Part shown: one piece after another, positions 6,909 through 45,643 of the stretch
How positions within the stretch are numbered: the first letter of the stretch is position 1
Layout: each line of letters opens with the position of its first letter
Assembly: GCA_043799545.1 (NCBI GenBank)
Contig: JAZDNO010000019.1
Coordinates: 64,001 to 128,000, forward strand
Direction of reading: 5' to 3'
DNA: 64,000 nt
From: Methanobacteriota archaeon
Lineage (GTDB): Archaea; Thermoplasmatota; Thermoplasmata; SG8-5; DAIRED01
Made by a program: the position numbers and the translations under genes
Notes under the pieces: generated by a model
Seen by the model: the letters and a program-made list of their open reading frames with translations, nothing else
What the model was told of the DNA's origin: nothing
The model's database searches: none

Positions 6909-6966
6909 ACGCCCTCCATGGGTGCGCTGGAAACATCTCGGCGCCACCTTTCGCGGAGGAATAAGA

Positions 6967-9234
6967 ATGAAAATAAAGAATCTATTTGCATTAGCGATTG
7001 TGGGAGCGATGCTTGCATCGGCTTTTGCCGGGCTCGCGGCGGCGGACATCATATCGGTGGACGACGACAGGGAGCTGTACATCGTCGCCACGGATTTGGA
7101 CAACCGTGACTACTTTCCGGGAGAGCAGGACATAGACTTCTACATCCAGTGGTACAACCAGGGAGGCGACATCTCCACAACGGACACAGACCTGACCGCG
7201 GTCAGCTGCACGGTGAACGCGGTGGTGCGCAACCTTGCCGGAGCGATAGTGAACAGCCCGGTGTCCTGGGACGAGAACACTGTGGACTACATGGGGACAT
7301 GGCACGAGGGGAACTTTGCGACGTTCAACAACTTCCAGTTCGACGTGGTTGGCAATGCCAAACCGGGCGTGTACAACCTGACCGTGACCCTGACGTTCAC
7401 GGACGCAGCGGAGACGGCCTCCGAGACCGAGTACATAACCTTCGAGATTCTCCAGTGCGCTTTTGTGAACGACGTCGGCGGGCTCATCCCCGGGGACAGC
7501 AACAGGAAGATAGGCGTATACGTCTCGACGGGCATGACGGGCGAGGACCTGTGGCCCGACATCACGCTGACGCTCACCAGGAACAACACGGCCTTTACGT
7601 GGTTCGGCTCGACCGGAGCGACCTCGACGTCGTCGTGGGACAACCCGATATACTCGTGGGCGGGCCACACCTTCCAGTTCCTGATTTCCGTTTCGCCATC
7701 CATGAAGGCCGGCGATTACGACTTCCAATATTCAATCAACTACACCAACGACGACGACGTGCACTGCACCGAGACGGGCGTCATCACGGTTACAGTGGGC
7801 CACCTGGCGATGATTGGCACCACAACGGCGGTCGCCTCCATCGAGCAGGGGACAACCAAGGCCAACTTCACTCTTGTGATATCGAACACCGGGACAGTGA
7901 ACCTCTACGGATTGAAGTTGCGCGTGGACCCAGCGAGCATGTACTTCACGGTCATGCCCGCGGACCACTGGGAAGGCAGCCAGCCCGTGAGCTACGCGGA
8001 GATCGAGGTGGGCGACATCGCAGTCGGCGGCTCGGTCAGCAAGACCATGGTCATAGGCTTCAACGCATACATCCCCGAGGGCAGGCACAAGCTCATGTTC
8101 GGCTTCGACTGTTTCTACTACGACCCAATATCGAGGAGCTACCTGAAGGCGAACTCGACATGGCTGGGCAACCCCTGCTATCCGTACGTGACAATGGACG
8201 GAAACGGCTTCGGGCTGTCTCCGGATGAGAGCACAGTCGACGGTCCGTTCGTCATGCTCGACGTAGTCGACAGCGCCATGGACGTGAGCCTGCAGAGCAC
8301 GACCGTTTTGTACAAATCCCTGGGGCTCATCGACAATGAGCTTGACGTCAAAGTGCTAAACTACGGATACATCGATTACGACAACGTGGTGCTGACGATG
8401 CTCACCAACAGCCCCGACTCGCCGTTCCTGAACGCCGTGGACCCGACGGCGGCCAGCTCCGAGGACGTCATCCTGCCGGGCATCTTGGGTGCGACCGACT
8501 CCGTGTGGCCGGTCCAGTCGGAATACACCGTGACGTTCCGAGTCACCTTGCGGACGGACGCGGAGATGGGCGTGTTCAACGTGCCTGTGACAGCCAGGGG
8601 AATCAACAAGGACATGGGTGTTGAGGTCGAGGCCACGCTCAACGCGAGGGTGACAATCGCCGGGGTAGGCCCAAAGCTTGTGGTAACGTCCTCGACCCCG
8701 TCGAAGATAAACCCAGGCAGCAACTTCGTACTCACGCTGACCATAGAGAACCAGGGGGACGACACCGCGCGAAACGTGGTCATGTTCTCCATCAACGGCG
8801 GAACTTGGGACAGCCTCGAGTTGAACGGAGAGCTGGCGGCGCCAGTCCCGATGATAACTCCGCTCGTCCTCCCGGACATAGCGCCCGGAGACAACATAAC
8901 AGTGACCATCGCAATGAAGTCGCCGGCAGACATGTCCAACGGACACGTCTACATGGTGGAACTCGGCGTGAGTTTCATAGACTCGTACGCCGACCCGTAC
9001 TCGTACAGCAACGCCCAGACGACGTACTTCCAGGTCTCGGTCAAGACCAACGGCATGGGCGGCTCGTCCCTGGGGAATCTCTTCTTCATACTGACGCTGG
9101 TGGGAATCGTCGTCATGATATTCCTCTGCGTCTACACGGTGGTCTGGGCGAGGAAGAACTGGGTGCCGAGGCGCAAGAAGGGAGCATCGCCGTACATTGT
9201 CGGCTCGGAGCAACCGCCGCAGCCTCCCCAGTGA
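6967..9234 (+). CDS. COG1361-type S-layer / Ig-like domain surface protein with C-terminal TM anchor
   Basis: Signal peptide, repeated Ig-like units (FTLVISNTG, FVLTLTIENQGDDTARNV, LPDIAPGD), TM helix, basic stop-transfer and Pro/Gln tail. GGAGGA precedes ATG 6967. Confidence 0.75.
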   Translation: MKIKNLFALAIVGAMLASAFAGLAAADIISVDDDRELYIVATDLDNRDYFPGEQDIDFYIQWYNQGGDISTTDTDLTAVSCTVNAVVRNLAGAIVNSPVSWDENTVDYMGTWHEGNFATFNNFQFDVVGNAKPGVYNLTVTLTFTDAAETASETEYITFEILQCAFVNDVGGLIPGDSNRKIGVYVSTGMTGEDLWPDITLTLTRNNTAFTWFGSTGATSTSSWDNPIYSWAGHTFQFLISVSPSMKAGDYDFQYSINYTNDDDVHCTETGVITVTVGHLAMIGTTTAVASIEQGTTKANFTLVISNTGTVNLYGLKLRVDPASMYFTVMPADHWEGSQPVSYAEIEVGDIAVGGSVSKTMVIGFNAYIPEGRHKLMFGFDCFYYDPISRSYLKANSTWLGNPCYPYVTMDGNGFGLSPDESTVDGPFVMLDVVDSAMDVSLQSTTVLYKSLGLIDNELDVKVLNYGYIDYDNVVLTMLTNSPDSPFLNAVDPTAASSEDVILPGILGATDSVWPVQSEYTVTFRVTLRTDAEMGVFNVPVTARGINKDMGVEVEATLNARVTIAGVGPKLVVTSSTPSKINPGSNFVLTLTIENQGDDTARNVVMFSINGGTWDSLELNGELAAPVPMITPLVLPDIAPGDNITVTIAMKSPADMSNGHVYMVELGVSFIDSYADPYSYSNAQTTYFQVSVKTNGMGGSSLGNLFFILTLVGIVVMIFLCVYTVVWARKNWVPRRKKGASPYIVGSEQPPQPPQ

Positions 9235-9940: not shown

Positions 9941-10834
9941 TCAAAGCTTGGCGACCTTGTCGACCTTTGCCTTCGGGTCTACCTCGACCTTCCCGCCCTT
10001 CACCAGTCCGATTCTGCAGTGCGGGCCTATCACGACCTCTCCGCCGGAGACCTCTTCCGCGATGACGCCGTCGATGTCCAGGCGCCCCTTCGCGACAAGC
10101 TTTTTGACTTTCAGCCGACCGTCGTCCCTGTGAAGCTTGATCTCTATCTCGTCCGCCTCGACGGACTCGGCGTGGTTCAGGTCCACGAGGCGCAGCGAGA
10201 CCTTCTTTGCCGTCATCTTTCCGAATACGAACAAGCCGCGCCCCTCGACCGTCTCCGCCTCGATGTCCTTCATCTCCGAGGCGCCGGAGAACTTCAGTTC
10301 CCTGGCCTTGATGGTGCCGCGGATGTCTACCGCGCCTGAGAGCACGCACTTGCCCACGTTCACGTCTCCTGTGATATCGCTGGCGCCCGAGACGCGCATC
10401 GCGTCGCCGCTCACGCTCCCCTCGATGTCGCACGCTCCGCTTATCTGGATGTCCGGGGATTCGACGTTCCCCTCGATGTCGCAAGAGCCAGACGCGTGGA
10501 ACGACTTGCTAGCTTTCACGGAGCCGGCCACGTCGCACGCCCCGGAAATCTCCACCTCCTCCGCGTCCACGTCGCCGCCAACGTCGCTCGCTCCGGATAC
10601 CTCCACCTTGACCGCGAACATGTCGCCGGGGTGGTCGCTGCAGCCGGAGACGCGGATGACGGGAGCGCGCTCGCCGCCTCCCTTGGCGCCCGAAGGCGAT
10701 TTTCCCTTCCTGGAATCGTCGCCAGCCTGCGCCTCGCTTTCGTACCTCAGCTTGATTTCCTTGTACGTCTCCTCGGACACCTCGCCGTTCGCGAACTTTT
10801 CGTCCAGCTTCCTCATCATATCCTTGAGTTCCAT
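9941..10834 (-). CDS. polymer-forming cytoskeletal / beta-helix repeat protein with N-terminal SHOCT-like motif
   Basis: Repeats of the form V/I-x-V/I-SGA-C/S-D-I/V-x-G-x-V; N-terminus LDEKFANGEVSEETYKEIK. Confidence 0.7.
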   Translation of the reverse strand: MELKDMMRKLDEKFANGEVSEETYKEIKLRYESEAQAGDDSRKGKSPSGAKGGGERAPVIRVSGCSDHPGDMFAVKVEVSGASDVGGDVDAEEVEISGACDVAGSVKASKSFHASGSCDIEGNVESPDIQISGACDIEGSVSGDAMRVSGASDITGDVNVGKCVLSGAVDIRGTIKARELKFSGASEMKDIEAETVEGRGLFVFGKMTAKKVSLRLVDLNHAESVEADEIEIKLHRDDGRLKVKKLVAKGRLDIDGVIAEEVSGGEVVIGPHCRIGLVKGGKVEVDPKAKVDKVAKL

Positions 10835-14256: not shown

Positions 14257-14330
14257 TGGGCCCATCCAGATTCGAACTGGAGTCTCGAGCTCCCAAAGCT
14301 CGAAGTATGACCAAGCTAGCCCATGGGCCC
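14257..14330 (-). tRNA. tRNA-Pro (TGG), CCA not encoded
   Basis: Acceptor GGGCCCA/TGGGCCC, anticodon arm CGAGC-TTTGGGA-GCTCG, T arm TCCAG-TTCGAAT-CTGGA, discriminator A. D stem has one mismatch. Confidence 0.95.
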
Positions 14331-14485
14331 TCGCCACGAGGATGGAGCGCTGGGATATATCTCTTTTCCGGTTCGGGGGAGCTATCAGCGGCGATATCCG
14401 GCCCTCATCCTTATATGAACGCGCAACCGGATGCAATCCAGCGTCAGGAACAAACTTTATGAGTTCAAATTGGTTGTGCATCCCG

Positions 14486-15901
14486 ATGAAAAGGTTGAGC
14501 GTCGTCGCCGTGACCGCGGTCCTGCTGGCGGTTTCCATAGCCGGCACGGGTTGGGCGCTGAGCACCGAGCCCGAGAGGAACCCCGGCGATTCGGTCGCAT
14601 TCGCCGTTCCTGTTTCAGAGCCCCTGGCGCCTGCCGCGGCTCCGCTGGCCGCGGGTTACACCCCGGCAAGCTTTCAGTTCGGCGTCGACGTCGAGACACA
14701 TGGCATCTACGTCGGCTACGGCGGGGCGCTTCGGGTCAGGCTCAACAACAGCCGGAGCGACAGCGAGATGCATGTCGTCAAGGAGCGAATCGTTTGGCTC
14801 GGGGGGATTGTCGAGAAGGATGTGAGCGTCGAGGTCGGGGCGAGGGCGGTGAGCGACCTCGGGCTGGTGTGGCTTCCCGGGCCGAACTTCGAGGGGGACC
14901 AGTCATACAAGGTCTCCCTGGAAATCCTCGTGAAGCAGGGCTCGTCGTGGAAGCGCCTGGGCGACGCGGGCGATCAGTGGACGGACTTCCAGCCGGGGTC
15001 TCTGCCGGTCATCGTGGATGGAACCGCCTCCGAATACGAGCGGGGCACCAATTGCTACGCATATTACGACAGGGCGAACGCCCTCATAGAGGACAGGGCG
15101 CAGACGGTGGCGGCGGCGCTCGCGGAGGCAACGTCCGGCATGCCTGGCGACCTCACGTACGAGAGGCTGTGCGGGGTCTATGACTGGGTCTCCCATAACA
15201 TCGCCTACGTCTCGGAACCGGAGGGCGAGGACGACTGGCAGACGCCCGAAGAGACGCTGGCGTCGGGCGGCGGGGACTGCGAGGATTTCACGCTCCTGAT
15301 ATCCGACATGGTTCTGGAGATGGGCGGGACCCCGAGGATGTACCTCATCGACGAGCACGCATTCGCAGCAATCTGGGTGGGCGAGAGCACGGCCGCCGCT
15401 GAAGATGCCATCAACGGTTACTACGGCGCGGAGTTGAAGCTCGCTTTCATAGAGGACGGCGGAGGGTTCTGGGTCGTGGCCGACCCTCTCGGCTCCCTGC
15501 ACCTTGGCGGGCTAGCCGTCCGGTCCGAGCCCACGTCCTCAACTGTCTGGGACTTCACTGACACGGCTGTCCTCTACGGAATAGACATGACGAGGGCGCC
15601 GGGCAGCGTCCGGATTTGGGAGCAGGACAGGCTCTGGGGCATATTCCAGATTGTATGCGACGTGCTCTTCCTGGCGGCTATCCTGATGGCAGTGGGCGTG
15701 GCTCCGAGGCCCGTGTGCGCCAGATGCGGAAGGAAGTTCTCCGGGGAGATTATGGAGTGCAAGGCATGCGGAGCCCTGCATCATCCACACTGTGCGAGCC
15801 AGGGATTTTGCGCGAACTGCGGCGCATCATTTAGCGCGCCCCAACCATTGCAGCCAAGCTCGCCCCCTCCGCCAACGCTGCCCCCTCGGGCACCACTATA
15901 G
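14486..15901 (+). CDS. exported transglutaminase-like cysteine protease with TM helix and cytoplasmic C4HC3 RING-like domain
   Basis: Signal peptide; triad GDCEDF / EHAFA / VADP; TM WGIFQIVCDVLFLAAILMAVGV; CARC-x10-CKAC-x4-H-x2-C-x5-CANC; Pro-rich tail. Confidence 0.75.
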   Translation: MKRLSVVAVTAVLLAVSIAGTGWALSTEPERNPGDSVAFAVPVSEPLAPAAAPLAAGYTPASFQFGVDVETHGIYVGYGGALRVRLNNSRSDSEMHVVKERIVWLGGIVEKDVSVEVGARAVSDLGLVWLPGPNFEGDQSYKVSLEILVKQGSSWKRLGDAGDQWTDFQPGSLPVIVDGTASEYERGTNCYAYYDRANALIEDRAQTVAAALAEATSGMPGDLTYERLCGVYDWVSHNIAYVSEPEGEDDWQTPEETLASGGGDCEDFTLLISDMVLEMGGTPRMYLIDEHAFAAIWVGESTAAAEDAINGYYGAELKLAFIEDGGGFWVVADPLGSLHLGGLAVRSEPTSSTVWDFTDTAVLYGIDMTRAPGSVRIWEQDRLWGIFQIVCDVLFLAAILMAVGVAPRPVCARCGRKFSGEIMECKACGALHHPHCASQGFCANCGASFSAPQPLQPSSPPPPTLPPRAPL

Positions 15902-15925: not shown

Positions 15926-17215
15926 TCAATGCCCGGCCAGCATGGCCTCGAGGTCCTTCCCCGGCTCTCCGATGAGCATGAGGTTGTAGTTATCCTGCAG
16001 GACTTTGAGGACTTTTGGTGTGACGAACGCCGGCGGCGAAGGACCCAGCCTGATGTTCTTGACGCCCAGGTGAAGCAGGGTGAGCAGTATCGCCACCGCC
16101 TTCTGTTCGTACCACGAGAGCACGATAGAAAGCGGGAGTTCGTTCACGCTGCACTTGAACGCTTCCGCGAGCGCCTGCGCGATGAGTATCCCGCTGTAGC
16201 TGTTGTTGCACTGGCCAAGGTCGAGGAGGCGCGGGATGCCGTCTATGTCCCCGAAATCCCTGTCGTTGAAGCGGTACTTTCCGCACGCGACTGTGAGGAT
16301 TAAGCAGTCCCTCGGAACGATCTCGGCCAGGCGCGTGTAATAGTCGCGCCCCGGCTTTGCGCCGTCGCATCCGCCGATGAGGAAGAACCTCCGTATCTTC
16401 CCGGCTTTGACTGCATCGACAATCTTCGGCGCGAGGGCGAGGACGGGCGAGTGGTGGAAGCCGGTCATGAGCGGCTTGCCAGATTTCTCGGGTAGAGCGC
16501 CGATTTTCTTCGCGTGCTCAATAACCGCGCTGTAGTCGGCCCTTTCGACGTGCTTGCAGCCGGCGACCGCTACGATGCTGGTAGTGTATAGCTTATCCCT
16601 GTACGAGTCCAGCGGGGGCATCACGCAGTTCGTCGTCATGAGTATCGGCCCTCCGAATTCAGGGAAATCGGTCCGCTGCTTCTGCCAGGCAGTGCCCCAG
16701 TTGCCGGCGAGATGCTTGTATTTCCTCAGCTCGGGGTAGGCGTGCGCAGGCAGCAGCTCGCCGTGGGTGTAGACCATGATTCCGGTCCCCTCGGTCTGCT
16801 TCAGCAGGGCTTCAAGGTCAAGGAAGTCGTGGCCGGAGACCAAAATCCCGGGAGCGGCCTTCCTCCCGGTCTGGACCCGGGATGGGCTGGGAGTCCCGAA
16901 CCTATTCAGGGTCGCCTCGTCCAGCAGCTTCATGATGCGCAGGTTCGTCTCCCCGGCCTTGAGGACCAATTTCACATGGTCGTTCAGGTCGAAATCCACG
17001 TTGGTCAGGGTCTTGAACAGGGCCTCGTGCATGAACGCGTCCACGGCCTCGTCGTGCACGCCATATTCTCTGGCGTGGTAGGCATACGCTGCGATGCCCT
17101 TCAGACCGTATGTCAGAGTCAATTGCAGGCTCTGTATGTCCTCGTCCTTTCCGCACACACCCTTGACCGTGCATGCCTCTCCCTTCGCCGTCTGCTCGCA
17201 CTGGTTACAGAACAT
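15926..17215 (-). CDS. hcp: hybrid cluster protein (hydroxylamine reductase), short class III-like form
   Basis: MFCNQCEQT..C..KGVCGK, SGHD, YTHGELLPAH, LMTTNCV, GGCDG, DLGQCNNS, WYEQKA; 429 aa. Confidence 0.95.
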   Translation of the reverse strand: MFCNQCEQTAKGEACTVKGVCGKDEDIQSLQLTLTYGLKGIAAYAYHAREYGVHDEAVDAFMHEALFKTLTNVDFDLNDHVKLVLKAGETNLRIMKLLDEATLNRFGTPSPSRVQTGRKAAPGILVSGHDFLDLEALLKQTEGTGIMVYTHGELLPAHAYPELRKYKHLAGNWGTAWQKQRTDFPEFGGPILMTTNCVMPPLDSYRDKLYTTSIVAVAGCKHVERADYSAVIEHAKKIGALPEKSGKPLMTGFHHSPVLALAPKIVDAVKAGKIRRFFLIGGCDGAKPGRDYYTRLAEIVPRDCLILTVACGKYRFNDRDFGDIDGIPRLLDLGQCNNSYSGILIAQALAEAFKCSVNELPLSIVLSWYEQKAVAILLTLLHLGVKNIRLGPSPPAFVTPKVLKVLQDNYNLMLIGEPGKDLEAMLAGH

Positions 17216-17483
17216 ATTTTTCCCCTCCTTTAATGCTGTTGCGGTCTGTCAGAGTCTGGGCCACGCCAGCGTAGCAGTCGTCGCACAGGAACCTCGGAGC
17301 CTTCCGCTCCCTCTTGCGCTCCATTCCGAGCATAGCCATGCCGGCGGTGTCCATCAACACCATCTCGGTGAACGTCACCTCCGCAATCCGCACGTGGTCC
17401 TGGCACAGGCCCATCCCGCACACGACGCATATCCCGACTGCCTGTGATTCCTTCCCCTTTTTGGCGCATTTGTAGCAGAGCAT
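17205..17483 (-). CDS. DUF2180-like zinc-binding protein
   Basis: MLCYKC...AVGICVVCGMGLCQDH...FLCDDC; overlaps the hcp start and contains its RBS. Confidence 0.75.
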   Translation of the reverse strand: MLCYKCAKKGKESQAVGICVVCGMGLCQDHVRIAEVTFTEMVLMDTAGMAMLGMERKRERKAPRFLCDDCYAGVAQTLTDRNSIKGGEKYVL

Positions 17484-17620
17484 ACCTTTGTCCCCGTGAT
17501 AAACAGGCGCCTATTTGTTATAAATGCAATCCCTACAAAATTAAACGATTGTGAACGTTATGGCATCCCACTCTGCTGGCGTGCAGAGCCAGTGACCAAG
17601 CGACCATTGCAACTCACCCA

Positions 17621-20533
17621 TCAACCTTCGCGACCCAGACCTTCTAGCATCTTCTCGCACCGTTCGGCGTCCTTCCGGATGTTGGACTTCCTGAACGCCT
17701 GCAGCGCCAGCATAAGGTGCTCACGCGCAGATTCCCGTCTTCCCTCCTTCGCCAGGAGTTCGGCATACTGCGTGCGCACGATTGCCCCGTCGATGACGAA
17801 ACCCGCCCCCTCCAGCCTATTGATGGATGATTCGTATTTGACGAAACAGCCATCTTTGTCGCCAGTTCCGAGAAGGACATCCCCCTCCAGCTTATCCACC
17901 ATGCCGATGAACTTCTTCAGGTCGAGTTCCTCCGCGACCCTCTTCGCGCGCTCAATGTTCACACTTGCGTCTTCCAGCCTTCCCGTGGCCAGGTTCAGCT
18001 CCGCCAGGCCGCAGTTCGCGCTGGCCTCGCCGGGCCTGTCTCCGTCCGCCGACGCGATCTCGAGTGCGTGCGTGTAGGCATCTAAGGCGCCCTCCGCATC
18101 GCCGAGATTCGTCTTGCATTTGGCTATATTTGTGTACAGGCGCGCTGACTCGACTCCCAACCTTTCCGAGAGTTCTAACGCCCGCGAGAAATGCGCCATC
18201 GCGTTGTCGAAATCGGCTGTGTCCTGCAGGAGTGCGCCGATGTTGGTGTTGGCGAAGAGCGCGCCCATCAGGTCTCCAATCCCCTCGCGGATGGCGAGCG
18301 CCCTCTTGTAGTAGTCGAGCGCAGCGCCGTAATCACCGAGGTCTGCGTGAGCGTTCCCGATGTTGTTCAGGGAAGCCGCGATGACATCCTTGTTGCCGGA
18401 TTTCTCTCGGGCCAACAACGCCTTCGAGTAATTCTCCAATGCCCGGGAGTTCTCTCCCCTGTCCGCGAGCACGTTGCCTATGAGGTTGAACGCGAACCCA
18501 GTCTCCTCGTAGGCGTTTCCCTGCTTCTCAAGAAGGGAAAGGCAGTCGTTGGCGCACGTCAATGCCGTGTCGAACTCACCAAGGCGCCAGTGAACAACCC
18601 CCTTTCCGACGGTCAGCTTGCTGAGCTCCGGGGAATCGGTAGCTTCGACTAGTTTGATTCCGGTTTCGAAGGATTCAATCGCGGCCTTCGGGTTCCCCGC
18701 CTTTTCTAGGGTATACCCGATTTTCCTGTGCAACCTGGCAGACCCTTCGGGCTCTTGGTTGGCCGACCTAGCAGACTCGTACTTCCCCACAGCTTCGACG
18801 AATCTGCTCACGAGCCTGAGCATGTCGCCGGTCCTCTCGCGTATTGCCGGAAGCCTCTCAGCATCGAGCAGGTTGCCGCTTTTGGCCGATGAGATGAGCG
18901 ATTCGACGAATTCGAAATATTCAATCGCCGACGCCGGTGCGTAGACCAAGGCGGATTTCTCCCCGGCCAAGAGGTTGTAGTTCAGAGCCTTGCCGTGCTC
19001 GCGGCTCCTTCTAAAATGGTACGCTAGTTCGTGGAGGCGCGCTTCTTGCAGTCCGAGCCCTTCGATTGTCTCCCCTATTCGCCTGTGCCTGGCCGCCCTC
19101 CATCGCTCCCCCGTTTCGCCGTATATTATCTCCCTAACCTTCGGCATGGAGAACCTGTATGCTCCGTCGTCCCGTATGACGAGATGTCTCCCTTCGAGGC
19201 GCTCCAAGGCGCTCTCGAACGATTTTCCTGGCAGGTCCTTTTCCGAGACCGCGCGCGATAGAATGTCGAAGTCAATATCCCCTGGCATCGCCGCCATCAG
19301 TTCTATAACTTCGAGTTCGAGGTCGTGGAGGGAGTCGATTTTGGAGTGCAGAAGCGCGGACATCTGCGCCCCCACGCCGCTGGAGATTTGATAGTCCAAC
19401 TCCGCAACATCCCCCACGCCCTTCGACACGATCAGGTCGGCGTATTCGCGAAGCAGCGCAGGGTTTCCGCCCGTCCTCTTGACGATTTCGAGCACGAGCT
19501 CTTCACGGAGCCCGTCCCCGCATGTTGAGCGGACGAATGCTGCGGCAGAAGGCTCGTTTAAATCTGCGAGGTGGATGATTTCGCCGTGCTTGTCAGCCAG
19601 AGTCATCAGGGCAGAGATGTGCTCAACCCCCTCCATCGGCTGCAGGGCTGCGATTACGAGCAGCTTCCTCTTTTTGTTGGTCCTCACAAGATGTTCCAGG
19701 AGTTGAAGCGAATTGCCGTCTATGGAGTGTGCGTCGTCGATGAAGAGCAAGGTTGGGGATTCCGATGCCAGCCTGTCGAACAGTAGCGAGTTCCTCTCGC
19801 CTATCCTGACCATCTGCTTCTTTATGTCGACATCGTCTCTCCTGGTTTCGAGGATGTACATCTTCTCCAGGAGTCCTTTCGCGAGGGCGGCGATGGGTGC
19901 AGCGGCCCTCATGTCCCCAGACCAGTTCCGCACGGTGTCGCCGTGCGCTGATTCCATCTCGGAGACGCACCTCCCGAGGTCCCTCCTCATCTGGGGGCTA
20001 TCGGTTCCGGACAGGACTCCCACGCAGAAGCAGTCACTCCCGTGCTCGATGAGTATCTTGCTGGTCCTATACTCCAGTTTGCCCAGGCCGCCCTCCTCGA
20101 TGCCGCCGTCCCCGATGGCCGCCCTGCCCAGGGAATCCCCCACAAAATTCTGCACTGCGGATATCATGCCGCCGACGATGTCCTCGTCCATCGGAGTGTC
20201 GACCCTGGCAGCGTGCGCCAGCACGAGCCCCGCTTTGTTGATGATGAAAATCCTCTCGAACGAGGCCTTCTCTTCCCAAGGCAGTTCGACTATTCCCACG
20301 TTCCTGAAAGACTGGACGAAGACGCCGTATGGCGGAGCCCCTTCGTAGCAATTGGCGGACAAGGTCTTCCAGTTGCCCGGCGGCAGCGCTTTCGCAAACT
20401 CCGACGCCAGGGTGCTCTTCCCTGTCCCCTCGTCGCCGGCGATCAAGATGAATCTTCCCGAACCAGAGAGCACTTCGCCGAGCCTCGCATTGAGCCTGCC
20501 GAGTTCGTCCACTCTTTCCAACCGAGGAACCAT
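17621..20533 (-). CDS. STAND-like AAA ATPase with inserted longin/roadblock-like domain and C-terminal TPR array
   Basis: Walker A GDEGTGKS, Walker B LLFIDDAH, GGNP motif, wHD-like YRFSMPKVREIIY and about 8 TPR-like repeats. Confidence 0.8.
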   Translation of the reverse strand: MVPRLERVDELGRLNARLGEVLSGSGRFILIAGDEGTGKSTLASEFAKALPPGNWKTLSANCYEGAPPYGVFVQSFRNVGIVELPWEEKASFERIFIINKAGLVLAHAARVDTPMDEDIVGGMISAVQNFVGDSLGRAAIGDGGIEEGGLGKLEYRTSKILIEHGSDCFCVGVLSGTDSPQMRRDLGRCVSEMESAHGDTVRNWSGDMRAAAPIAALAKGLLEKMYILETRRDDVDIKKQMVRIGERNSLLFDRLASESPTLLFIDDAHSIDGNSLQLLEHLVRTNKKRKLLVIAALQPMEGVEHISALMTLADKHGEIIHLADLNEPSAAAFVRSTCGDGLREELVLEIVKRTGGNPALLREYADLIVSKGVGDVAELDYQISSGVGAQMSALLHSKIDSLHDLELEVIELMAAMPGDIDFDILSRAVSEKDLPGKSFESALERLEGRHLVIRDDGAYRFSMPKVREIIYGETGERWRAARHRRIGETIEGLGLQEARLHELAYHFRRSREHGKALNYNLLAGEKSALVYAPASAIEYFEFVESLISSAKSGNLLDAERLPAIRERTGDMLRLVSRFVEAVGKYESARSANQEPEGSARLHRKIGYTLEKAGNPKAAIESFETGIKLVEATDSPELSKLTVGKGVVHWRLGEFDTALTCANDCLSLLEKQGNAYEETGFAFNLIGNVLADRGENSRALENYSKALLAREKSGNKDVIAASLNNIGNAHADLGDYGAALDYYKRALAIREGIGDLMGALFANTNIGALLQDTADFDNAMAHFSRALELSERLGVESARLYTNIAKCKTNLGDAEGALDAYTHALEIASADGDRPGEASANCGLAELNLATGRLEDASVNIERAKRVAEELDLKKFIGMVDKLEGDVLLGTGDKDGCFVKYESSINRLEGAGFVIDGAIVRTQYAELLAKEGRRESAREHLMLALQAFRKSNIRKDAERCEKMLEGLGREG

Positions 20534-20665
20534 TTTCCTTTCCCGCCCACAATGCGGAGCGGTATCAGCACCCGCACCCGCATTGGTAATGCGCCTTCGG
20601 ATATATCGCTTTGTTCATCCCTTCGCGTCGAATGCAGATTTCGATGGGCTGGCACGACCTGCCAG

Positions 20666-21418
20666 TCAAACGGGTTTTTTCTTCCTGTCTCGCCAGTAAT
20701 CGCAAATCAAGTATACGATTACGGACGCCAATATGCAGTACCCAATCGTCTCGACGACCGTCCGTCCGTAGGAATCCAGTATCGCCCCGCCAGCGTAGTA
20801 GCTCGCGCCGGCGATGGCGAAGCAGCCGATGAGCGAACCCGCGGTCACGGCTGCGAATACGACCCTTCCTCGAATCCCGGCCATCCTCCCAATCAGGGTG
20901 GACATGATTCCTCCGCTGCCCTGGACCGAGAGGCTCACGAACCCCGTCAAGCCCATGAATGCCAGCTTCTCCCCCTCGCGGCGCTTGCGGAGCCTGGCCG
21001 CTCCCTTCTCCTCCAGCTTGCGAAGCCACTTGCCAATGACGGGAATCATCTGGAGGAGGTCGAAGTTGTTCACAAGGAACATTGAGCACGTGATGTCAAT
21101 GAACGCGACCGAGAAGGCCACGAGAGCTATGTCCAAGAACGGGCTGGTTTCTCCGTGCATCTCGCGGAGGCCGGGCATGTCCACGCTCCAGCCTATCCAA
21201 GAAGCGACGGTGTTCAACCCCACGAGCAGAGCCCCCGGGATGAGCAGGTACTTGCCGATGGGGGTGATGAAGTAGAGCACCATCAGCGCCCCCGCGAGCA
21301 TGAAAGCCTCCCATTCCAGGAATTCGTATAGTGCGATGCAGTAGAGTGCGACTATCGCGACTGGAAGGAAGAACAATCCGAGGCGCTTCGCGACATATCT
21401 CCAATCAGGCATCTTCAC
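20666..21418 (-). CDS. small multi-drug export family-like membrane protein
   Basis: About 6 TM helices, KYLLIP, VSLSVQGSGG and basic amphipathic linker WLRKLEEKGAARLRKRR. Confidence 0.6.
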   Translation of the reverse strand: MKMPDWRYVAKRLGLFFLPVAIVALYCIALYEFLEWEAFMLAGALMVLYFITPIGKYLLIPGALLVGLNTVASWIGWSVDMPGLREMHGETSPFLDIALVAFSVAFIDITCSMFLVNNFDLLQMIPVIGKWLRKLEEKGAARLRKRREGEKLAFMGLTGFVSLSVQGSGGIMSTLIGRMAGIRGRVVFAAVTAGSLIGCFAIAGASYYAGGAILDSYGRTVVETIGYCILASVIVYLICDYWRDRKKKPV

Positions 21419-30127: not shown

Positions 30128-31102
30128 TTAGAGGTTTAACAATCCATAGATGATGAATGGGAGTGCAATTGCAAGGATGGCTCCGTAGTAGTTCACCTGC
30201 TTGGAGTAGTCCACCTCTTTCCAGTACTCTTCGTCGATGTATATCACGGTCGTGACGAACAGCGAGGCGGCCAAGAACCCATAGGTCGCAATCATGATTT
30301 TGTCTATCGTCATCAGCATCGGCATCGGTGGCAGCGACGATGTCTGGCTGATGTGGAACATCACGGCGGAGATGAGCATCGACGTGCCGAAGCCGATTCG
30401 GTTGGCTATCTTATCCGGCCTGAACGCGAACGAGAGGCCTGAGACTATGCAGAAGATTATCGGCGGGAGGAGGGTCTTGATGGCTGTCGTGGTCACGGCC
30501 CTGCCGATGCTGATGGAAAATGTGGTGCGCGAGTATGTCTCCCCCCAGTTCTCGTAAACCTTGTCGCTGACGGAGATTGCGACATCGTTCATCTGCCAGC
30601 CGGGGATGTTCAGAGATTCGTCTATCGTCGTGCCATCGGTGTCGGCGACGTACACGAGGTCGTCGACCGTGAGCTTGGAGTCTTCTATCTGGATGACTAT
30701 CTCGAACTCGTTGAACGGGTAGGTCTTGAACTGCGGTTCGTTGTAGAGCGACGCTTGGATGCGATACCAGACCTCGCGCACGCCGTCACTCGTCACGTCC
30801 GAGAGCTTCTGCGTCGAGCTCGCGCGCCCGTTCATGAACTCGTACGATAGCGCGGAGAAGTTCGCATCGCTCGCGTCCCATGCGAGCCACATGTAGAAGT
30901 CTATGGTGTACGTGCCTTTGTTGGCGTCGAAGTTGCCGAAGCCGACGACGTAAATTCCGACGGTCACCTGAGTGGCGCCGGCGGCCTGGCGCGTGGTCGG
31001 GGGCGCTGGTGCGGCCGCGTCCACGGAGCCGAGCGGCACCAGCGACAGGGCCAGGAGCCCGACGAGCGCGAGCGCCGCCATCCTGTAAATCCTCACAGAC
31101 AT
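30128..31102 (-). CDS. prokaryotic pentameric ligand-gated ion channel (Pro-loop; GLIC/ELIC family)
   Basis: Signal peptide, beta-rich ECD (VTVGIYV...YTIDFYMWLAW), YPFN Pro-loop, four TM helices and M2-M3 loop SSLPP. Confidence 0.85.
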   Translation of the reverse strand: MSVRIYRMAALALVGLLALSLVPLGSVDAAAPAPPTTRQAAGATQVTVGIYVVGFGNFDANKGTYTIDFYMWLAWDASDANFSALSYEFMNGRASSTQKLSDVTSDGVREVWYRIQASLYNEPQFKTYPFNEFEIVIQIEDSKLTVDDLVYVADTDGTTIDESLNIPGWQMNDVAISVSDKVYENWGETYSRTTFSISIGRAVTTTAIKTLLPPIIFCIVSGLSFAFRPDKIANRIGFGTSMLISAVMFHISQTSSLPPMPMLMTIDKIMIATYGFLAASLFVTTVIYIDEEYWKEVDYSKQVNYYGAILAIALPFIIYGLLNL

Positions 31103-44728: not shown

Positions 44729-45643
44729 ATGCAGCGCCCGGTTGCGCACACCTATCGCAAGCCAGTCGTGGTGGGGACGAGGGACGAGGCCATACGTCTC
44801 TGCGGAATATGCCTGGGTGAAATCAAAGGCGGCCTCCCGTTCGCCATTTGCGACTGCGGCAAGCTCTACCACGTCACGTGCGGTTTCCGCGTCGGCGTCT
44901 GCGTCTCCTGCGGCATCCAGATGGACGAGGGGATGAGGCGCGAGCCCGAGGGCGGGGCGAAGCCTGCTGCTCCAAGGGAGGATGTCCCAACTGAAGTTCC
45001 GTCCGAGGTCGAGCCGATGAGGCCGGCCAGGCGGCTTTCGGTTGCGCAAAAACTCGAACTCCTGGAGGAGCGGCTGCTCACGGGTCACATCTCAGAAAAT
45101 TTGTACAAAGAGCTCAAAGCCAAGTTCGAGATGGAACGGGAAACGGCGGATGGAGATGCAGCCGAGGTTATTGCGCCGGCGCTCGAACCGGCCTTCGCCT
45201 GCCCCGAATGCGGTGAGGCGCTGGCTGACGGCGTGGCCTCCTGCCCGAAGTGCGGCCTTCGGCTCGACGAGAGCTTCGCCTGCCCCGAATGCGGCGCCTC
45301 GATGGAGAGGGACCAGAGGCGATGCTCCTGCGGGGCGGAGTTCACGGACGTCGAGGTCGAATACTCGTGCCCGATGTGCGGAGCCACGCAGAGCGGGGAT
45401 ACCGACGAGTGCGCGGCCTGCGGAGCCGAGTTCGCGGGCGATGCGCTGGAGACCGGATACGAGTGCCCCGAGTGTGGCCGCAAGGTGGAGGAGAGCGCCG
45501 CCGAATGCCAGTGCGGAGCGGTATTCGACAGGGAGGAGCACCAGGGGACCGCGCTCCAATGCCCCGAGTGCGGGGCGGAGGTCTCGCGCGAGGATTCCTT
45601 CTGCCCCGGATGCGGCGCGAGGTTCGCGGACGGCGCCGGCTAG
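44729..45643 (+). CDS. multi-zinc-finger protein: C4HC3 RING-like + SHOCT-like + five double zinc ribbons
   Basis: CGIC-x12-CDC-x4-H-x2-C-x6-CVSC; LEERLLTGHISENLYKELK; five CPxCG...CxxCG units. Confidence 0.75.
   Translation: MQRPVAHTYRKPVVVGTRDEAIRLCGICLGEIKGGLPFAICDCGKLYHVTCGFRVGVCVSCGIQMDEGMRREPEGGAKPAAPREDVPTEVPSEVEPMRPARRLSVAQKLELLEERLLTGHISENLYKELKAKFEMERETADGDAAEVIAPALEPAFACPECGEALADGVASCPKCGLRLDESFACPECGASMERDQRRCSCGAEFTDVEVEYSCPMCGATQSGDTDECAACGAEFAGDALETGYECPECGRKVEESAAECQCGAVFDREEHQGTALQCPECGAEVSREDSFCPGCGARFADGAG
45193..45294 (+). repeat. 21-bp direct repeat (81-bp period) within zinc-ribbon units
   Basis: CTTCGCCTGCCCCGAATGCGG at 45193-45213 and 45274-45294. Confidence 0.85.

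Follow-up and report, generated by a model that had tools for sequence, protein, structure and literature searches.

A transglutaminase-fold membrane protein of a Thermoplasmata order with an added RING-like finger, a candidate ecto-peptidase with a cytosolic handle

Why would an archaeal enzyme that is predicted to work outside the cell end, on the cytoplasmic side of its membrane, in a two-zinc finger of the RING type? The question is raised by a gene in a 64,000-nucleotide stretch of DNA (the window; positions 64,001 to 128,000 of contig JAZDNO010000019.1, assembly GCA_043799545.1) from a Methanobacteriota archaeon (GTDB lineage Archaea; Thermoplasmatota; Thermoplasmata; SG8-5; DAIRED01). 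It encodes a 471-residue protein, here called P0001, in which a Cys-His-Asp enzyme domain, a membrane helix, a C4HC3 finger, and a Pro-rich tail follow one another. The features are given below with window coordinates, strand, and the evidence on which each is placed (AlphaFold model; VIA and Foldseek structural searches; pLDDT, predicted local distance difference test).

14486..15901 (+): coding sequence of P0001, 471 residues, stop included; start backed by orthologue N-termini, each of the order's 22 searched genomes having a full-length orthologue
14492..14563 (+): predicted membrane helix at the N-terminus (residues 3-26), either a signal anchor or a signal peptide left uncleaved; hydropathy, charge, model helix H3-26
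14648..15049 (+): predicted extracytoplasmic beta-sandwich, residues 55-188; model strands, VIA Z 8-10, Foldseek also matching CARDB
15053..15595 (+): transglutaminase-fold cysteine peptidase-like domain, residues 190-370; Pfam, triad, LapG profile match, VIA
15278-15280, 15356-15358, and 15482-15484 (+): codons of the catalytic triad, Cys265, His291, and Asp333; alignment
15626..15694 (+): predicted second membrane helix, residues 381-403; hydropathy, charge, model helix H381-403
15716..15820 (+): predicted cytosolic C4HC3 two-zinc finger, Prok-RING_1 or RING-PHD-like type, residues 411-445; pattern, Pfam, model, VIA
15821..15898 (+): Pro-rich tail, residues 446-471, containing a PPPP motif and disordered in the model; pLDDT 48-54

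In the full-length AlphaFold model, calculated with a 29-sequence alignment (pLDDT 90.5, predicted template-modelling score 0.80), helix 3-26, the beta-sandwich (55-188), an alpha/beta core (190-370), helix 381-403, the finger, and the disordered tail are arranged in that order. Hydrophobic segments of 19 residues occur only twice in P0001, around residues 4-24 and 382-406; both are helical in the model (H3-26 and H381-403), and the flanking charges (N-terminus +2, then -3 behind the first segment and +2 behind the second) fit a topology in which both ends lie inside (N-in/C-in) and the enzyme domain would be outside. The architecture proposed in the initial annotation, an outer enzyme, a returning helix, a cytosolic C4HC3 finger, and a Pro-rich tail, is borne out with this predicted topology. 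Its one membrane helix before the finger is found at residues 381-403, together with a further anchor helix at the N-terminus (residues 3-26), and its intact triad is invariant in all 29 aligned sequences. The spacing of the finger at nucleotides 15716-15820 is exactly the one it gave, and the Pro-rich tail is present in P0001 (SSPPPPTLPPRAPL) and, as a run of at least three prolines after the finger, in 16 of the 21 complete orthologue C-termini (manual count). Only 7 residues link the second helix to the finger.

The finger ligands in P0001 are C411-x2-C414-x10-C425-x2-C428-x4-H433-x2-C436-x5-C442-x2-C445. All eight are kept throughout a 12-sequence alignment, in 23 of 23 aligned fingers (20 orthologues and 3 paralogues from the source genome, built from DNA references), and in 27 of 29 full-length family rows, the two exceptions being one finger-less orthologue and one truncated by a contig end. 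The second ligand pair is C-x-C instead of C-x2-C in the f2 and g7 orthologues. Positions between the ligands vary more widely than the enzyme core as a whole, the mean major-residue fractions being 0.39 and 0.61. Searched as a loose regular expression, the finger pattern matched twice in the six frames of the window and not at all in 100 codon shuffles.

Each of the 22 genomes of the order that were searched (4 families, 8 genera) has one full-length orthologue. The eight-ligand finger is found at 20 of these 22 loci, the orthologue in genome G004 (locus L029) being without it and that in G007 being cut short by a contig end; counted over orthologues with a complete C-terminus, retention is 20 of 21. 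A word-indexed search of 5.8 billion proteins returned 11 relatives, the named ones labeled as Thermoplasmata or Thermoplasmatota archaeon. Among 301 genomes sampled from the class, just two families beyond the order, f15 (2 genomes) and f28 (3 genomes), have full-length forms extending to the finger; in several further families there is an outer part without a finger. When 1.84 billion representatives were searched exhaustively with a profile, 113 clusters scored E <= 1e-30. About 10 of them, plus one fragment, extend to the finger; most of the others are proteins of about 370-400 residues that end at profile position 377-385. Of the short forms inspected, four stop where the enzyme domain does; one continues into a second helix, with just KRKRKM behind it. 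Because the short forms end after the enzyme domain and few clusters reach the finger, the finger module is derived: judged from the sequences compared, helix, finger, and proline motif are a later addition to an N-anchored ecto-enzyme.

The same finger is found on other proteins of the source genome. A genome-wide pattern scan detected six open reading frames (ORFs) with a C4HC3 finger, P0001 included, four of which are membrane proteins with the finger placed after the last helix. One is an archaeosortase/exosortase homologue (L061:1190-2299, G000:C7; Exosortase_EpsH 45.3 vs. 25.7 bits) with six predicted helices and a C-terminal finger, a fusion that is present in all 15 order orthologues with a complete C-terminus. 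Among the 16 genomes matching this archaeosortase, 13 alignments extend past the finger and one is truncated by a contig end; in G004 and G006, the finger follows a longer linker. A Na+/H+ exchanger (L047:2210-3961) likewise has a C-terminal finger, and a DUF835 protein with four membrane helices (L048:1245-3158) has one after the last helix, together with a possible extra Cys-rich, zinc-ribbon-like stretch. A 1583-residue protein without predicted membrane helices (L046:808-5559) carries the finger near its C-terminus, with finger matches also seen in ORFs of 1455-1599 residues in other genomes of the class, and a soluble 304-residue protein encoded in the window at 44729-45643(+) has an N-terminal finger (44801-44911) as well as numerous zinc ribbons and a stretch of helix.

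What kind of finger is this? Its model (mean pLDDT 84.3; 31 of the 57 residues score at least 90) has a short helix that begins at the His-x2-Cys pair, as in treble clefs. In two VIA searches (the first over 48,161 chains, independent of Foldseek), its neighbors include, from the second search, the RING-like domain of IFT-A (8fgw_A; Z 6.0, root-mean-square deviation [rmsd] 1.4 Å over 44 residues), and further the RING-like domain of alpha-COP (Z 5.1-5.2), the RING-H2 domain of EL5 (Z 4.5, rmsd 2.7 Å over 48 residues), U-boxes (4.2-4.5), the ZZ domains of Ada2 (4.4) and p62 (4.0), the GATOR2 RING (4.3), RNF4 (4.2), and RNF126 (4.1), and most of the 50 rows of the first search, headed by alpha-COP (Z 5.2), are RING, U-box, ZZ, PHD, LIM, FYVE, or C1 domains. 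Several of the top neighbors are scaffold RINGs that are not known to act as ligases. Foldseek against the Protein Data Bank (PDB) listed PHD, RING, LIM, and ZZ domains with weak E values (0.08 or above) and nothing at E <= 0.001. When the finger profile was compared with solved sequences, single-stretch matches were to a C1 domain, RING-H2 domains (Arkadia 5e-5, RNF24 6e-5), and PHD domains (about 1e-4); tandem C2H2 arrays, which topped this comparison, were set aside as repeated short "Y-x-C-P-x-C-G" matches. A homologue search with the finger region alone returned only the query, and a protein-atlas search with residues 378-471 gave no usable match.

Across the family, Prok-RING_1 matches 14 of the 29 members (E <= 0.01, best 5e-8), C1_2 matches 12, and the double zinc ribbon matches 5; a precomputed PF14446 label is attached to 4 of the 11 homologues. 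By sequence, the finger family is therefore of the Prok-RING_1 type, with a divergent copy in the window. A likeness to Prok-RING_1, raised at the outset, holds for those 14 members; P0001 itself falls below the Prok-RING_1 cut-off and below those of the PHD families (PHD, PF00628, 10.3 vs. 24 bits; PHD_4, 13.8 vs. 30.6 bits).

We turn to the outer part. Pfam scores, triad, and the papain-like core fold of the model agree in placing P0001 in the transglutaminase-like superfamily: it passes the cut-offs of Transglut_core (PF01841, 23.8 vs. 23 bits) and DUF553 (PF04473, 23.5 vs. 20.5 bits), which match 29 and 26 of the 29 family members at E <= 0.01, and no aligned sequence, whether in the set of 12 or in that of 29, departs from Cys265 (in a GDCED motif), His291, and Asp333. 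In VIA, the core aligns with 3kd4, a putative protease, over 135 residues at Z 11.0, with LapG over 131-134 residues at Z 9.1-9.3 (identity 18-22%, rmsd 3.3-3.8 Å; best row Z 9.3, 3.3 Å over 134 residues), and with the animal transglutaminases TG2 and TG3 at Z 8.3-8.6, while 3isr and TglA are also similar; the beta-sandwich is like TRAP, ApaG, the C-terminal barrel of transglutaminase-2, and complement MG domains (Z 8-10). When the family profile was run against PDB sequences, LapG proteases took the top two places, at E 9.6e-6 and 2.8e-4, the match running through a D-x-W-x-x-P-x-E-x-L...GDCED stretch. Since P0001 scores below the curated cut-offs of Peptidase_C93 (14.1 vs. 27 bits) and NCBIfam CystProtLapG (16.6 vs. 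320), we regard the outer domain, on sequence grounds, as LapG-like in mechanism and outside the LapG family proper. No LapD-like neighbor gene was seen in the window.

To judge from these matches, the outer domain most likely cleaves surface proteins and less likely cross-links them. A true cross-linking transglutaminase that stitches envelope proteins together, with the finger again as a cytosolic handle, is in our view unlikely. It would account for the intact triad, for Transglut_core matches in all 29 members, for a beta-sandwich preceding the catalytic core as in animal transglutaminases, and for TG2, TG3, factor XIII, and protein 4.2 among the structural neighbors (Z 8.2-9.8, some rows covering the catalytic part and some the beta-sandwich alone), but the sequence and profile matches favor LapG-type peptidases (E 9.6e-6; structural Z 9.1-9.3), and most studied microbial members of the transglutaminase fold are peptidases.

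We favor a reading, to which we give an even chance, in which P0001 is a membrane-anchored ecto-peptidase that carries a docking finger on its cytosolic side. It would be a cell-envelope enzyme, fixed to the membrane by both of its ends, whose beta-sandwich and transglutaminase-fold Cys-His-Asp domain face outward and act on surface proteins. The order and a few other lineages have added the second helix, the juxtamembrane two-zinc RING-like finger, and the polyproline motif. Inside the cell, finger and polyproline would together make up a small handle for binding proteins, with a role in docking or regulation; it may link the enzyme to a partner or scaffold in the cytoplasm, or allow it to be controlled from inside. 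The finger is, on our best reading, not an obligate ubiquitin ligase (E3).

A number of observations weigh against this reading. The orthologue in G004 (L029, contig C20) has lost the finger and yet keeps the second helix and a PPPPP-containing tail, so that the finger is dispensable there; because the tail persists in this finger-less protein, the polyproline motif may matter independently of the finger. A matching loss was looked for in the archaeosortase of G004, which still has its finger and thus gives no signal of co-loss. The P0001 finger (residues 411-443) reaches only 14.7 bits against a Prok-RING_1 (PF14446) cut-off of 29.1, and its structural Z scores, all at or below 6.0, are modest even for 57 residues. 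The source genome contains an active-looking ubiquitin-conjugating enzyme (E2; HPN motif, Cys102), a ubiquitin-like protein (Ubl) ending in GG, and a JAB peptidase. Moreover, E2 genes are somewhat commoner in genomes with the finger (16 of 25) than among the other genomes sampled from the class (114 of 276), a comparison confounded by relatedness, so that the finger may have an E3 role in some lineages. The sole conserved neighbor gene, Sm_multidrug_ex (17 of 22 loci), is convergent and hence uninformative. Finally, the reading is a proposal from sequence and model with a hypothetical partner protein, and we hold it with evenly divided confidence.

The initial annotation had pointed to a link of Prok-RING domains with prokaryotic ubiquitin-like systems. 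Genes for an E2, a Ubl, and a JAB peptidase are present in the source genome, but on another contig than that of P0001. A Pfam UQ_con E2 (L009:7765-8271; 48.6 bits, above the cut-off) lies on contig C16, in a Ubl-E2-JAB operon outside the window (L009:7176-8713, equivalent to G000:C16); the Ubl is YukD-like and ends in ...PEGG plus a 10-residue extension, and is followed by the E2 and the JAB peptidase. ThiF-type candidates for an activating enzyme (E1; G000:C24:15952-16647 and C10:7988-8575) and a ThiS-type protein are also present in this genome. In the order, E2 and JAB genes occur together at 12 of 12 loci examined, 10 of which also have the Ubl, and the HPN motif and Cys102 of the E2 are kept, the cysteine invariantly. 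The larger f6 genomes have E1-E2-JAB operons at L043:173-3456 and L044:327-3344 (ThiF-type E1 of about 420 residues; E2 of 178 residues, about 83 bits), and at L040:1429-2977 there is an E2-JAB pair with no ThiF found upstream; at L043, the next ORF after the operon begins with a weak B-box-like zinc finger (E 2e-4).

The tie of the finger itself to this system is weak, and in this respect the earlier suggestion fared poorly. No Ubl, E1, E2, or JAB gene is found in the window around P0001, no ubiquitin-type family was seen among the examined neighbor ORFs of the 22 orthologue loci (shared clusters within 1.5 kb flanks, with Pfam scans of four ORFs at L012 and one at L015), and the finger persists in genomes where no E2 was found. 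UQ_con E2 genes occur in 130 of the 301 genomes sampled from the class; among the 25 that have the finger-bearing protein, the 9 without an E2 include G005 (94% complete), G006 (93%), and G032 (91%). An order-specific E2 profile found nothing at E <= 1 in G005, G006, G032, G043, and G033; searches with Prok-E2_A and Prok-E2_B also found nothing in five genomes, although the controls were silent too. The f3 orthologues in genomes without an E2 nevertheless have all eight finger ligands.

An E3 of the transmembrane RING type, in which the finger recruits an E2 charged with the YukD-like Ubl and P0001 tags itself or neighboring membrane proteins for turnover, thus appears improbable. The RING-like model with RING-H2 ligases among its neighbors (EL5 4.5, RNF4 4.2, RNF126 4.1), the Prok-RING_1 matches in 14 of 29 members (best E 5e-8), the operon just described, with its GG-ending Ubl and its E2 with HPN motif and Cys, and the E1 candidates of the genome are what one would look for in such a ligase. 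The residue before the second Cys, which we take to be the E2-contact position of RINGs, is hydrophobic in 18 of the 23 fingers but Arg in the window copy, and an Arg or Lys directly after the last Cys, presumably the "linchpin" of active RINGs, is seen in 1 of 23. The Arg of the window copy, the rarity of a basic residue after the last Cys, the 9 finger genomes without a UQ_con gene, the silence of the order-specific profile in five genomes, and the missing ubiquitin-type neighbors in the window and at the orthologue loci examined all count against a ligase. A wider version would make the finger-bearing proteins an archaeal counterpart of the eukaryotic transmembrane RING ligases: in lineages with the operon, the finger shared by ecto-peptidase, archaeosortase, Na+/H+ antiporter, and DUF835 protein would recruit charged E2, and envelope enzymes and transporters would be tagged with Ubl for extraction and turnover. 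We consider this quite improbable; if true, it would mean that a pathway for the quality control of membrane proteins exists beyond eukaryotes and Asgard archaea.

P0001 might also be an outside-in receptor, in which binding of a ligand or substrate by the outer domain alters the grip of the finger on a cytosolic factor, as with anti-sigma factors. The receptor-like topology and the short 7-residue link between helix and finger would suit this role. It is nonetheless very unlikely, as no conserved regulator gene is adjacent in the window or at the orthologue loci examined, the same finger is carried by transporters and an archaeosortase, themselves unlikely receptors, and the invariant catalytic triad favors an enzyme over a sensor. 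Highly improbable, lastly, is a finger that lacks a cross-brace and binds nucleic acid or lipid, built either from two zinc ribbons or from a CCHC knuckle with an outer ribbon clasping it: the weak Pfam matches to double zinc ribbon (5 of 29) and C1_2 (12 of 29), the presence at Z 3.9 of some archaeal ribosomal proteins with zinc ribbons in the structural searches, and a ligand pairing read from model neighbors would allow it, but RING, U-box, ZZ, and PHD domains are nearest and dominate both structural searches (lowest rmsd 1.4 Å over 44 residues), the helix begins at His-x2-Cys, profile matches to solved RING-H2 and PHD sequences span most of the finger, and as far as the model shows, which contains no metal, the finger does not consist of two independent zinc ribbons, the outcome that would have spoken against the initial annotation.

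The gene lies within an ORF spanning 14342..15901(+), and its start is placed at the Met at 14486 (MKRLSV...). Met is found at this position in 14 of 21 aligned orthologue loci, mostly as M-[SK]-R, while in the remaining 7 the alignment begins further in or the start is missing from the locus. A tRNA-Pro gene at 14257-14330(-) is immediately 5' of it, and the window genes around it encode a malic enzyme, a PAS protein, a hybrid-cluster protein, a DUF2180 protein, and a STAND ATPase. When ORF clusters common to the 22 orthologue loci (1.5 kb flanks each) were compared, the Sm_multidrug_ex membrane-protein gene was the convergent downstream neighbor in 17, with a Ham1 gene next after it in 13 and a GNAT gene upstream in 8; the Pfam names of these neighbors rest on L012 (four ORFs scanned) and L015 (one ORF scanned). 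In the window, the Sm_multidrug_ex homologue is at 20666-21418(-), separated from the P0001 gene by three other genes: the interval 15926-21418 holds the hybrid-cluster protein, the DUF2180 protein, and a 970-residue AAA_16-TPR STAND ATPase in between, where 17 orthologue loci have the two genes adjacent. A search of sequencing runs listed no RNA run, and the DNA runs listed have small word shares of 0.05-0.07. Further upstream are genes for a bactofilin-domain protein (9941-10834(-)) and a 770-residue CARDB/NEW3 surface-type protein (6922-9234(+)). Elsewhere in the window, a 324-residue ORF at 30128-31102(-) has weak, sub-threshold matches (E about 2e-4 to 4e-4) to Neur_chan_LBD and Neur_chan_memb, the two halves of pentameric ligand-gated ion channels.

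How does P0001 compare with known systems? Prok-RING_1, reportedly defined by Burroughs, Iyer & Aravind in 2011 (Mol Biosyst 7:2261), shares with the finger the C4HC3 set of eight ligands in about 35 residues; P0001 differs in its score (14.7 vs. 29.1 bits) and in that no neighborhood or phyletic tie to Ubl, E1, E2, or JAB was found. PHD domains have the same ligand order and central spacing (C-x2-C-x4-H-x2-C; profile E about 1e-4), but P0001 scores 10.3 against 24 bits, and the last loop, 5-6 residues in the finger, is longer in PHD domains. The best structural matches, RINGs of protocoatomer-type scaffolds (IFT-A 8fgw_A, alpha-COP 3mv2 and 6tzt, GATOR2/SEA 7uhy and 8adl), belong to soluble eukaryotic complexes and are similar in fold only (7-21% identity). 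LapG is a soluble protein controlled via a separate receptor, LapD. With the LapG/BTLCP peptidases (Peptidase_C93; 4fgo, 4fgq, 4u65), P0001 shares the transglutaminase fold, the triad, the D-x-W-x-x-P-x-E-x-L...GDCED motif, and a predicted action outside the cytoplasmic membrane; unlike them, it is membrane-anchored and has a cytosolic module of its own and an extra beta-sandwich.

In layout, P0001 is like the eukaryotic PA-TM-RING proteins (RNF128/GRAIL, RNF13, plant RMR) and ATL RING-H2 ligases such as EL5, which consist of a lumenal or extracellular domain, a single membrane helix, and a cytosolic RING-type finger. P0001 differs in having a transglutaminase instead of a PA fold outside and C4HC3 instead of C3H2C3 ligands, and it gives no sign of E2 dependence. 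TgpA of Pseudomonas aeruginosa is a membrane protein as well. It is bacterial and has a transglutaminase-like domain, and the accessible part of its description mentions no zinc finger (PMC3507681). The C4HC3 arrangement is described for prokaryotic RINGs in the portion at hand of PMC11354881, and what could be consulted of PMC11188069 contains nothing on E2 or RING in Thermoplasmata. [quoted passage not shown] By analogy, these two may serve as a precedent for a docking or control handle.

Among the papers listed in literature searches, none describes a fusion of a transglutaminase with a RING or of an archaeosortase with a zinc finger, although Burroughs et al. (2011) may list such architectures. 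Both domains of P0001 come from known families, and the pair is already labeled on a few database entries; P0001 is therefore not a new kind of protein. What is new is the derived origin of the finger, its retention in 20 of the order's 21 orthologues that have a complete C-terminus, its sharing with an archaeosortase and transporters, and the lack of coupling to an E2 system. A plain N-anchored surface enzyme has gained a helix, a RING-like finger, and a polyproline tail, which have been kept in nearly every orthologue of the order. The ligase question for prokaryotic RING-like fingers can be tested with the proteins of a single genome, since a eukaryote-type E2 is present in 130 of the 301 genomes sampled from the class. 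The finger also ends an archaeosortase, which itself acts on surface proteins, and two other membrane proteins, and its being common to them points to a cytoplasmic partner that may organize or control envelope enzymes in these archaea.

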